From the NCBI RefSeq assembly GCF_003942695.1, contig NZ_RJNU01000011.1, positions 1 to 60,789 on the forward strand: DNA of 60,789 nt. The letters are read 5' to 3'. The notes below the pieces were generated by a model. The model had not been told where the DNA came from and did no database searches. It saw nothing but the letters and a program-made list of their open reading frames with translations. How positions within the stretch are numbered: the stretch's first letter is position 1; each line of letters begins with the position of its first letter. The translations under genes were made by a program, and so were the position numbers. The stretch is from Streptococcus mitis. Lineage in GTDB: Bacteria; Bacillota; Bacilli; Lactobacillales; Streptococcaceae. Positions 27,689 to 30,161 of this stretch are shown here, in pieces.

Positions 27689-28309
27689 TCAGTCGGACTG
27701 CTTCCCATTTTGTAATAAAGCTCTTACCTCGTCTGCTCCAATTTTATCCTCAGCTTTTTCAAAGAGTTGAATAGATTGATAAAAATAATCTCGTGATTTA
27801 TTTGAATTTTGCTTCAGATAAATCTCTCCCATCCCTCTATAGGAACATGCTTGGGCAATGAAGTCCTCAGTTGTCAAAGCAAAATCTAGGGATTCTTGCA
27901 TATATCTTTCTGCCTCTTCTAGATTTCCCAACTTTAAACGAAGGTAGCCTTGTTCATAGTTGTTAACAGAAAATTTCAAAGCATCATTGGGAAAATATTT
28001 TTTTATAATTTGTATTTCCTGATCGATATAGAGTAGAGCTTTTTGAAAATGACCCATTTCCCTGTAAATCATCGCTAACTGATGATAACCAATATGTTCA
28101 TTTTCTTGGTCACTTTTAGTTCGGGCTAAGTCAATATAATGCTGGTAAATACTTAAGCACTCGCTATAATTTTGCTCTTCAAGATAGATATAGCCCATCA
28201 AATTTAATAAACTAAAATTAGTGCAAGTTTCCAAAGAAAAATCAGCTTCAACTAATTTTTTAGCCTCTTCAATTTTTCCTTCAAACAATAATTCCCATGC
28301 TTGATTCAT
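27689..28309 (-). CDS. Tetratricopeptide-repeat protein
   Basis: 206 aa consisting only of TPR-like helices. Last gene of a tight hsdR-NTase-ZnR-TPR string (17-nt gap to the preceding gene). Confidence 0.7.
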   Translation of the reverse strand: MNQAWELLFEGKIEEAKKLVEADFSLETCTNFSLLNLMGYIYLEEQNYSECLSIYQHYIDLARTKSDQENEHIGYHQLAMIYREMGHFQKALLYIDQEIQIIKKYFPNDALKFSVNNYEQGYLRLKLGNLEEAERYMQESLDFALTTEDFIAQACSYRGMGEIYLKQNSNKSRDYFYQSIQLFEKAEDKIGADEVRALLQNGKQSD

Positions 28310-28326
28310 GCTTATTCTCCTGCATC

Positions 28327-29385
28327 TTACGTTGTATAGAAATCTATTGATAAATCGCTATCAGATTCGTATTTTTTCCAAGCTAAACTGAATCCATAAT
28401 AATCTTCAAATTCAGGGTGCCAGTCATAATAAAGTGGGATACGGCTATATTTTCTTGCAGCAACTTCGTCTTCAAATTCTGGAGATTCCCCTGCAGTAAT
28501 ACCAAATTGAAGACCATTTAGTTCCCAGCTATTGCCCCAAGCATTTTCATCAGAAAGAACATCAATCCATCTAGAGGCATCAATATCAAAATCTGCACAT
28601 AATTCCAGCTCATAGAATCTTCTACAGTTAATCTCTAAAGGCTTTATATAAAGGGCGCCATCCACTTGGTACTTTTTATCTTTGACTTGAATCTGTGTGA
28701 TTTTCATTGGAATTGGAACTCCATTTAATTCTAACCAGAAATAACCTAAGGGAGTTTTGATACCATGATATGTTTGCTGAGTGACAGGTTTAGCATTTTT
28801 AGAGCAAGCATCAAGAATTCTTCCAAGCTTAATTAAATTTCTACAAACGATTTTCGAAGTGAATGGGTCGAAATGTGAATACCTACGGATGACACGTTTT
28901 AACTTTTCAACAGGAAAGGTAATATCCTTTGGTAGGGCATGATACTTCTGTACAACTAAAGCAGTTTTTTCAGTATTTTCTTTCCCTACTGGGACAATAA
29001 CAGCGTGCCCAATATGGATATTTGGGTCATCGCAGATATAAGTATAGCCATTCCCTCCCTCCTGAAACTCAACCACAACAAGATTTAGCTCTTGATCTGG
29101 ATCAAAGAGAGGCTCTACCTTTTCTACTTCTTGGCGCTCATAAAAAGTAAAGCGATCTCCATCCCCGTCTTCGCCAAAAACCATGAAGCTTCCACACTCA
29201 GGGCACTTCCACATATAAAAAGAAGCTTCTGAAATATCATCATAAGAAATTTTATTATGGTCGTCAGCTTTATTCATGATTTCTTCAAACAACTCATCCA
29301 AATAAACTGAATAAGCATTTGGATCGGGCGCTAGGTGGTCGTTCATTGCTTGCCCGCATTTACATGTCCATTTCCCCATAAACAA
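28327..29385 (-). CDS. Hypothetical protein with an N-terminal zinc ribbon (CxC...CxxC) and an acidic, Trp-rich C-terminal domain
   Basis: 352 aa with Cys pairs CKCG and CPECG about 45 aa apart. I recognise no family. Its start lies 2 nt after the NTase stop. Confidence 0.7.
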   Translation of the reverse strand: MFMGKWTCKCGQAMNDHLAPDPNAYSVYLDELFEEIMNKADDHNKISYDDISEASFYMWKCPECGSFMVFGEDGDGDRFTFYERQEVEKVEPLFDPDQELNLVVVEFQEGGNGYTYICDDPNIHIGHAVIVPVGKENTEKTALVVQKYHALPKDITFPVEKLKRVIRRYSHFDPFTSKIVCRNLIKLGRILDACSKNAKPVTQQTYHGIKTPLGYFWLELNGVPIPMKITQIQVKDKKYQVDGALYIKPLEINCRRFYELELCADFDIDASRWIDVLSDENAWGNSWELNGLQFGITAGESPEFEDEVAARKYSRIPLYYDWHPEFEDYYGFSLAWKKYESDSDLSIDFYTT

Positions 29386-29387
29386 CC

Positions 29388-30161
29388 TCAGTCGTAACTT
29401 AATTCTTCAAGGAAAAATTGATTTAGAGCTTTCCAGTCTTTCTTCATCTCAGTAACGCTTTGAACGTATACATCAAGCTCTTGGATATTATCTAAAATAT
29501 AATCTTGAATTGGCTTAATCGGATCAATTTCCATACCTTCAGGACCGTTTACCTTGATATTAAGCAAACTTGACACATGCTCCTTCATTTGAGACGGAAG
29601 CAATTCTTTGACCAAATCGTCAAATAAAATCGGAGGGACTGAATGGTATTTTTCTATCCAACGACAAGCCAAAATGGGACGCAGCACGTAGAAATACTTT
29701 TTAGGTTTGACCTTGTCTCCAGAAAGATACTTATTCATTTGAGTTCTAGCAGTATTCAAGTAATGGTAGAGCATTTTTTTCTCTGAAAAATACTGGTTTG
29801 CAAGAGGACGTATACGTTCGATAAAATCCGTTTGTTGATAAACAATTGGCGACTGTAACCATTCAAACAGTGTAGGATTTGACTTATAAAGGAGTTTTAA
29901 AGTTTTGTCTAAATCCCAACCGCTCACATCCCAAGTATCGTCAATTGGTAACTCGATAACATCACGCTGTTCATTCAAATGGAGATAAAAATCTCGCTTG
30001 TGTTTGTAGATAAATCGTACATCAAAGTCACTATCAGGAGACTCAAAGCCCCATGCACGACTACCAGACTCGATAGCCCACAAAACTGTGACTCCATAAT
30101 CACGCTCAATTTCTGCTAATTTTTCAGGTACCAGAATATTCATTTCTTCTTGCGTTTGCAT
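29388..30161 (-). CDS. Pol-beta-superfamily nucleotidyltransferase (PF10127/RlaP-like)
   Basis: 257 aa with the NTase motif ESGSRAWGFESPDSDFDVRF (GS-x9-DxD) and conserved RPILACRWIE and PPILF regions. Starts 17 nt after the hsdR stop. Confidence 0.75.
   Translation of the reverse strand: MQTQEEMNILVPEKLAEIERDYGVTVLWAIESGSRAWGFESPDSDFDVRFIYKHKRDFYLHLNEQRDVIELPIDDTWDVSGWDLDKTLKLLYKSNPTLFEWLQSPIVYQQTDFIERIRPLANQYFSEKKMLYHYLNTARTQMNKYLSGDKVKPKKYFYVLRPILACRWIEKYHSVPPILFDDLVKELLPSQMKEHVSSLLNIKVNGPEGMEIDPIKPIQDYILDNIQELDVYVQSVTEMKKDWKALNQFFLEELSYD

Follow-up and report, generated by a model that had tools for sequence, protein, structure and literature searches.

A putative RlaP-family nucleotidyltransferase operon with an unannotated partner protein, located downstream of a tvr-type restriction island in Streptococcus mitis

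The window analyzed here is a 60,789-nucleotide stretch of Streptococcus mitis DNA (contig NZ_RJNU01000011.1), which contains three consecutive genes encoding a nucleotidyltransferase (NTase), a partner protein from an unannotated family, and a protein containing tetratricopeptide repeats (TPR). The NTase belongs to the RlaP family. We propose with moderate confidence that the genes constitute a lineage-specific RlaP operon of mitis-group streptococci, in which a new partner replaces the RNA ligase, and which most likely acts on RNA 3' ends. The three genes are located immediately downstream of hsdR, the last gene of a type I restriction-modification island, which is judged from the comparison of loci to be an incidental upstream neighbor and not a part of the module.

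The NTase of 257 amino acids is encoded at positions 29388..30161, the TPR protein of 206 amino acids at 27689..28309, and the HsdR subunit of 1116 amino acids at 30179..33529, all on the minus strand. The middle open reading frame (ORF) was first listed as spanning positions 28327..29385 of the same strand, with a TTG start codon and a length of 352 amino acids. The list of ORFs confirms the previously described layout of four ORFs on one strand, in which hsdR, the NTase gene, the 352-residue ORF, and the TPR gene are separated by gaps of 17, 2, and 17 nt. Although the middle ORF exists in that form, the true start of the partner gene (28327..29379) is almost certainly the ATG at position 29379, and the protein has 350 amino acids, because all the database homologs are 350 residues long and begin with MGKWTC, and because a GAGG sequence is positioned 6 nt before this ATG. 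The corrected gap between the NTase and partner genes is 8 nt instead of 2 nt, and the GAGG ribosome-binding site overlaps the NTase stop codon. Shine-Dalgarno-like sequences precede each of the three genes. The positions of the ribosome-binding sites, which overlap or abut the preceding stop codons at spacings of 8 and 17 nt, suggest translational coupling within the trio.

The ratios of nonsynonymous to synonymous divergence (dN/dS) relative to the window are 0.11 for the NTase, 0.12 for the partner, and 0.26 for the type A allele of the TPR gene, and those of the flanking genes are 0.08–0.10. Therefore, the three genes are under purifying selection and are real genes, not chance ORFs. The exact sequences of the three proteins occur in Streptococcus mitis records, where the annotation goes no further than "putative nucleotidyltransferase", "hypothetical protein", and "tetratricopeptide repeat protein". 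These generic annotations, and the absence of a PADLOC system match, agree with the preliminary description of the trio as uncharacterized.

The NTase was identified as a member of the RlaP family by its match to the Pfam profile PF10127, with an E-value of 1e-85 and a score of 287.9 bits (cut-off 23). Residues 10–251 of the protein align to positions 4–248 of the 249 positions of the profile. The NTase also matches phrog_14344 "nucleotidyltransferase" with an E-value of 2e-74. Comparisons to PADLOC and NCBIfam models provided only non-significant matches (PADLOC E about 0.01), and a sequence search of the PDB provided none. The catalytic motif characteristic of the polymerase beta superfamily has the form G33-S34-x10-D45-F-D47-V. 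The GS and DxD elements had been recognized correctly before, but they are separated by ten residues and not nine. Both G33-S34 and D45-F-D47-V are invariant in relatives with 59–63% sequence identity to the NTase, as are aspartates 74, 75, 78, 83, and 85, which are candidates for the third catalytic acidic residue. The initial family assignments, of a PF10127-like NTase, a partner without a known family, and a TPR protein, are in agreement with the Pfam, PADLOC, NCBIfam, and PHROG scans.

Since the NTase is a full-length RlaP, it is not a signaling-type enzyme of the cGAS/DncV-like nucleotidyltransferase (CD-NTase) kind, as had been suggested. The order of an NTase, an unannotated protein, and an adaptor-like protein resembles cyclic oligonucleotide-based antiphage signaling systems (CBASS) and other systems combining an NTase with an effector, but the likeness is superficial. 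CBASS is formed of a CD-NTase and an effector, whereas the S. mitis NTase is an RlaP, the PADLOC cyclase and effector models are unmatched, and the partner lacks a known effector fold.

The RlaP family was reportedly named by Burroughs and Aravind in 2016. Two RlaPs from Pseudomonas, PfRlaP and PaRlaP, add one or two nucleoside monophosphates (or their deoxy forms) to the 3'-OH ends of RNA; they favor mimics of cleaved tRNAs and are inactive on DNA and on 3'-phosphate ends (PMC12776372, a December 2025 preprint). The genes for RlaPs are usually located within operons of RtcB or other RNA ligases, and NrdC.11 of phage T4 is a member of the family (PMC12776372; also PMC7824862). The NTase of S. 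mitis shares with these proteins the end-to-end family match and the conserved GS...DxD motif. However, the repair operons include an RNA ligase, whereas the S. mitis module has no RNA ligase, RtcA, or RtcR nearby. The genes surrounding the module encode HsdR, DUF1980, ArsP, Tex, SprT, and PspC, with ribF or aguB upstream, and none of them belongs to a ligase family. Instead, the predicted RNA-end-modifying enzyme of this Gram-positive oral commensal is accompanied by a protein with a zinc ribbon, a barrel similar to the 3'-end-binding domain of PriA, and a beta-sandwich, and by the TPR protein.

No significant family assignment was obtained for the partner protein from Pfam, PADLOC, NCBIfam, or PHROGs. 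Its structure was predicted by AlphaFold2 using 51 homologs, with a pLDDT of 88.9. The model contains an N-terminal Cys4 zinc ribbon (residues 1–88, positions 29116..29379), a small barrel (residues ~92–172, 28864..29106), and a beta-rich C-terminal domain folded as a beta-sandwich (residues 173–350, 28330..28863), all encoded on the minus strand. The cysteines of the ribbon are C6, C8, C59, and C62 in the 350-residue numbering. The C-terminal part contains six tryptophans and has an isoelectric point (pI) of 4.9; hence the earlier characterization of the protein as an N-terminal Cys4 ribbon followed by a Trp-rich acidic domain was fair. The beta-sandwich has no informative structural match.

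The barrel is predicted to have the fold of the N-terminal 3'-end-binding barrel of PriA. The score of the partner against the Pfam family PriA_3primeBD (PF17764) is 16 bits, below the threshold of 22.7, and its relatives reach E-values of 7e-10. The best PDB match of a profile of the barrel domain is PriA from E. coli, with the VxVPxGK segment aligned and the aromatic "YxY" of the partner opposite the "FDY" of PriA. A structure search of BFVD returned only small uncharacterized phage proteins, which match the barrel.

Homologs of the partner found by a word-indexed protein search are restricted to mitis-group streptococci and have at least 73% sequence identity. An exhaustive HMMER search of 1.84 billion representatives identified 18 proteins with E-values below 1e-30. 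Some of the HMMER relatives are full-length proteins of 355–365 residues, and others, of 478–567 residues, have the barrel and the C-terminal core in common with the partner and contain different N-terminal domains. One member of the family, P0124, has Sel1/TPR repeats fused to its N-terminus. The longer homologs were examined for an N-terminal RlaP fusion, which was ruled out, as none of them carry RlaP. The barrel alone, with the consensus …YxYxxDDxxIxxGDxVxVPVGxxNxE…, is a C-terminal module of hundreds of otherwise unrelated proteins (including P0162–P0270), among them fusions to GNAT, ADP-ribosylglycohydrolase, HD, TrbL, and SH3 domains. It also occurs as phage proteins of 63–140 residues. 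Apparently, the PriA-like barrel is an unannotated domain with a wide distribution among Firmicutes and phages. It differs from the N-terminal 3'-end-binding domain of PriA in being a promiscuous C-terminal module that is joined to many unrelated domains.

The distribution of the module was surveyed by tblastn in 80 loci of GTDB species representatives, including S. oralis, S. mitis, S. infantis, and S. pseudopneumoniae. A scan of contigs returned only close mitis-group relatives, with 83% identity or more. The NTase and the partner are both intact in 74 of the 80 loci, and the NTase is truncated in four and absent from two. The complete trio is present in 49 loci, with the TPR gene of type A in 17 and of type B in 32. 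The TPR gene as such was found in 52 loci, as a remnant in three, and is missing from 25; it is thus a dispensable, facultative member of the module. The gene hsdR is positioned directly upstream in 28 loci and absent from this position in 50, and in two the flank is too short to tell. The trio stays linked when separated from hsdR, as 31 of the 50 loci without hsdR contain it complete, compared to 18 of the 28 loci with hsdR.

The module is always located at one site, convergent to the permease gene pair DUF1980/ArsP and near tex. In loci without hsdR, the gene preceding the NTase is ribF in S. oralis and S. mitis or the polyamine gene aguB in the infantis group. The synonymous divergence (dS) relative to the window is 0.29–0.36 for the module, similar to the 0.27–0.29 of its flanks, and 0.11 for hsdR. 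Because of this similarity to the flanks, the module looks like an accessory operon that is resident in mitis-group streptococci and inherited vertically. In some S. infantis-like loci (L121:5786-6618), only about the first 34 codons of the partner gene are left, and a doc (tvrT-like) gene is positioned in its place between the NTase gene and DUF1980.

The association of RlaP with the partner family recurs in more distant relatives. In locus L094, the gene of an RlaP with 63% identity to the NTase shares 4 nt with the start of a gene for a 522-residue partner homolog, the core of which is about 54% identical. In locus L170, the gene order is reversed, and an RlaP with 59% identity directly follows a 531-residue partner homolog with about 33% identity. 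The N-terminal domains of both these homologs differ from that of the S. mitis partner. RlaPs with 57% identity or less have neighbors other than members of the partner family. The preliminary description had named an RlaP-type RNA-repair enzyme with unrelated neighbors as the contrary outcome; the RlaP identity was borne out, but the neighbors are not unrelated to RlaP. An intact NTase without the partner is present in L117, and an intact partner remains in L001, L087, and L090, where the NTase is deleted. The trio is not an obligate unit, though the adjacency of RlaP and the partner recurs in relatives. Separately, a 481-residue protein (P0001, a cluster of five sequences, on a contig of up to 125 kb) contains the C-terminal half of the NTase in frame with the whole partner, the stop codon between them having been lost. 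It is probably a decaying NTase, though a natural read-through fusion.

In the proposed mechanism, the NTase would act on RNA 3' ends as an RlaP-family nucleotidyltransferase. The partner may be a substrate-selecting or regulatory subunit that employs its ribbon and barrel for this purpose, and the TPR protein, as an optional third component, could form a bridge to a further protein. The mobile tvr-type island appears to have been inserted immediately upstream, replacing the promoter region of the module. The RlaP family was first characterized biochemically in a late-2025 preprint and is so far understood only as a helper of RNA ligases. The existence of a conserved RlaP operon in which a ligase is lacking and an unannotated family supplies the partner suggests that RlaP is used in a second way. 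Furthermore, the operon, carried by a naturally transformable streptococcus, is tractable as a model.

Several observations weigh against the interpretation of the module as an RlaP operon acting on RNA 3' ends. Genes for an RNA ligase, RtcA, or other RNA-repair proteins were not found near the module, which thus falls short of a complete repair pathway. The partner is acidic, with a pI of 4.8 overall and 5.7 for the barrel, which is atypical for proteins that bind nucleic acids. The residue aligned with D17 of PriA, which we take to be the one contacting the 3'-OH, is Tyr or Thr in the partner family. PriA (PDB 6dgd, 2d7e) also has a helicase, which the partner lacks. Because Asp17 is not conserved and the barrel is acidic, the binding of 3' ends by the barrel is only a lead. 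Among 12 contexts of distant partner homologs, ten have no RlaP nearby. Together with the intact partners in the three loci from which the NTase was deleted, this indicates that the partner has a function independent of RlaP. Finally, RlaP activity is known only for the two Pseudomonas enzymes, from the preprint (PMC12776372).

The alternative that fares best, though it is unlikely, is that the trio provides an abortive-infection-like defense against phages or plasmids. The partner, the TPR protein, or both would sense infection, and the RlaP would extend the 3' ends of tRNAs or other RNAs and thus block translation, as NTase toxins of the MenT/AbiEii type do; the adjacency to hsdR would reflect a defense island. 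In agreement with this, the site of insertion is a hotspot of variable content, which accommodates the tvr restriction system and the doc toxin, and a KAP NTPase gene is located downstream of the module in the variant locus L117. The components of the module are lost patchily, the TPR gene is allelically dimorphic, and other partner homologs adjoin the serine recombinases of mobile elements (L093, L167). A gene for a 571-residue, P0133-like member of the partner family flanks different restriction systems at the same spot in two loci. It is followed by a type IIG Eco57I-like enzyme in L168 (720-6199), and by N4/N6 and C5 methyltransferases and a McrB-like AAA_5 protein in L169 (196-6486), which marks this spot as a variable defense hotspot. 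In L168, the gene is preceded by an ORF that resembles, by eye, the C-terminus of a RumA-type rRNA methyltransferase.

However, none of the trio proteins has a significant match in PADLOC-DB v2 beyond the generic TPR model (3e-11 for the 206-residue protein). The module resides at a fixed site with a core-like dS and appears vertically inherited, unlike a mobile defense cassette, and hsdR is lacking from 50 of the 80 loci. The orphan NTase and the orphan partners fit poorly with a toxic effector in need of control. In addition, the preference of characterized RlaPs for damaged RNA suggests repair over poisoning (PMC12776372). The effector and adaptor of an abortive-infection system proposed in the preliminary description thus draw on guilt by association only, and weakly.

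A related, more speculative possibility is that the RlaP subclade and the partner family, with the optional TPR protein, form a new ligase-independent RNA-end-modifying system engaged in biological conflict, where it would serve in defense as an effector or counteract ribotoxins as an antidote. The conserved beta-sandwich might then be a new sensor or enzyme, for example one that heals 3'-phosphate or cyclic-phosphate ends, which RlaP would require before acting on them.

It is improbable that the three genes are merely neighbors without a joint function, with RlaP working alone, the partner acting independently, and the TPR gene being a separate accessory. Each gene has been lost independently in some lineages, most distant partner homologs have no RlaP nearby, and RlaPs of other lineages have other neighbors. 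However, the close spacings and the ribosome-binding sites at upstream stop codons suggest translational coupling, the adjacency of RlaP and the partner recurs at 59–63% and 33–54% identity, respectively, once in reversed order, and Sel1/TPR repeats are fused to a partner homolog.

A toxin-antitoxin pair of the type VII MntA-HepT or AbiE style is very improbable: the two genes are tightly coupled, include a polymerase beta-type NTase beside a small partner as in MenT/AbiEii and MntA-HepT, could in principle block tRNA charging by RNA 3'-end chemistry, and show a faint match to the NCBIfam model of MntA (E 0.032), but that match reaches only 14.1 bits against a cut-off of 60, the NTase is of a different family, no HEPN or AbiEi partner is encoded among the neighbors, PADLOC detects no AbiE or toxin-antitoxin system, and the existence of intact orphans of both the NTase and the partner disfavors such a relation.

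The island upstream of the putative RlaP operon spans positions 30179..38638 on the minus strand. It contains hsdM, hsdS segments, the phd-doc toxin-antitoxin pair tvrAT, the tyrosine recombinase gene tvrR, a partial hsdS, and hsdR, in this order. The corresponding Pfam matches are N6_Mtase/HsdM_N, Methylase_S (two domains, then one), Fic/DOC, Phage_integrase, and ResIII/EcoEI_R_C. The tvr locus of pneumococcus has the same organization and is phase-variable (PMC6265443), which supports the earlier assignment of the island to phase-variable type I restriction-modification systems, as it is of the tvr/SpnIV type. The hsdM gene (37145..38638, minus strand) has an in-frame stop at 37520..37522, in codon 373 (…KPYA-stop-VSTAILIF…), which divides it into ORFs of 372 and 101 residues, whereas its ortholog in L011 is intact with 497 residues. 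The stop may have left this strain without an active restriction-modification system, unless it is a sequencing error.

The coupling of the module to the restriction system, emphasized previously, is facultative and looks like the result of a secondary insertion. The junction, with the hsdR stop codon about 17–20 nt before the NTase ATG, is the same in two different upstream contexts, ribF and aguB (L011-L090). Because the synonymous divergence of hsdR is about one third of that of the surrounding genes, the island appears to be a younger, spreading insertion, and its recent spread between mitis-group species is suggested.

In the island-free locus L086, the region upstream of the NTase gene contains a terminator-like hairpin (recognized by eye) and, after it, a -10-like element. 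Both are missing from this position in the window, where hsdR ends 17 nt before the start codon, and a promoter and terminator scan found no terminator-like site between hsdR and the NTase gene or inside the trio. Co-transcription with hsdR, as previously proposed, is plausible in this strain. Since the island appears to have replaced the promoter region of the module, transcription of the operon in strains with the island, this strain among them, is probably due to read-through from hsdR, although this link would be secondary. A ComX (competence) box was considered upstream of the NTase gene in an island-free locus and rejected, as the candidate TCAGAATA has two mismatches and is too near the start codon (by eye). 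For studies of tvr loci, it is of consequence that, in roughly one third of the species, an unrelated operon adjoins the downstream end of the island and may be driven by it. Phenotypes ascribed to tvr variants or deletions could be confounded by this operon.

The 206-residue protein matches the Pfam families TPR_12 (3e-15), TPR_2, and TPR_8. Its gene occurs as two alleles, type A (about 94% identical), which is the one in the window, and type B (about 72% identical). Most of the difference between the alleles is in the 3' two-thirds of the gene (window positions 27689..28100 compared to L019 and L036), where the nucleotide identity is 65–77%, as opposed to 90–97% in the flanking genes. Only type A is followed by an AT-rich spacer of 676 nt (27013..27688, minus strand); in loci with type B, only about 27 nt separate the TPR gene from the end of the DUF1980 gene.

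The spacer is complete in 19 loci, 18 of which have a near-full-length TPR gene of type A, and it is missing from loci with type B or without the TPR gene. An Rfam search with the spacer provided no match. It contains a promoter-like site (27445..27416), an AGGAGG ribosome-binding site, and a terminator-like hairpin (27145..27117), all on the minus strand. The ribosome-binding site precedes an ORF of 16 codons, MFLGFYFRFWFSIWWR (27323..27373, minus strand). The encoded peptide is retained in the 19 loci, with substitutions only to aromatic or hydrophobic residues. This ORF could be the gene of a small hydrophobic peptide, possibly linked to the adjacent TPR protein.

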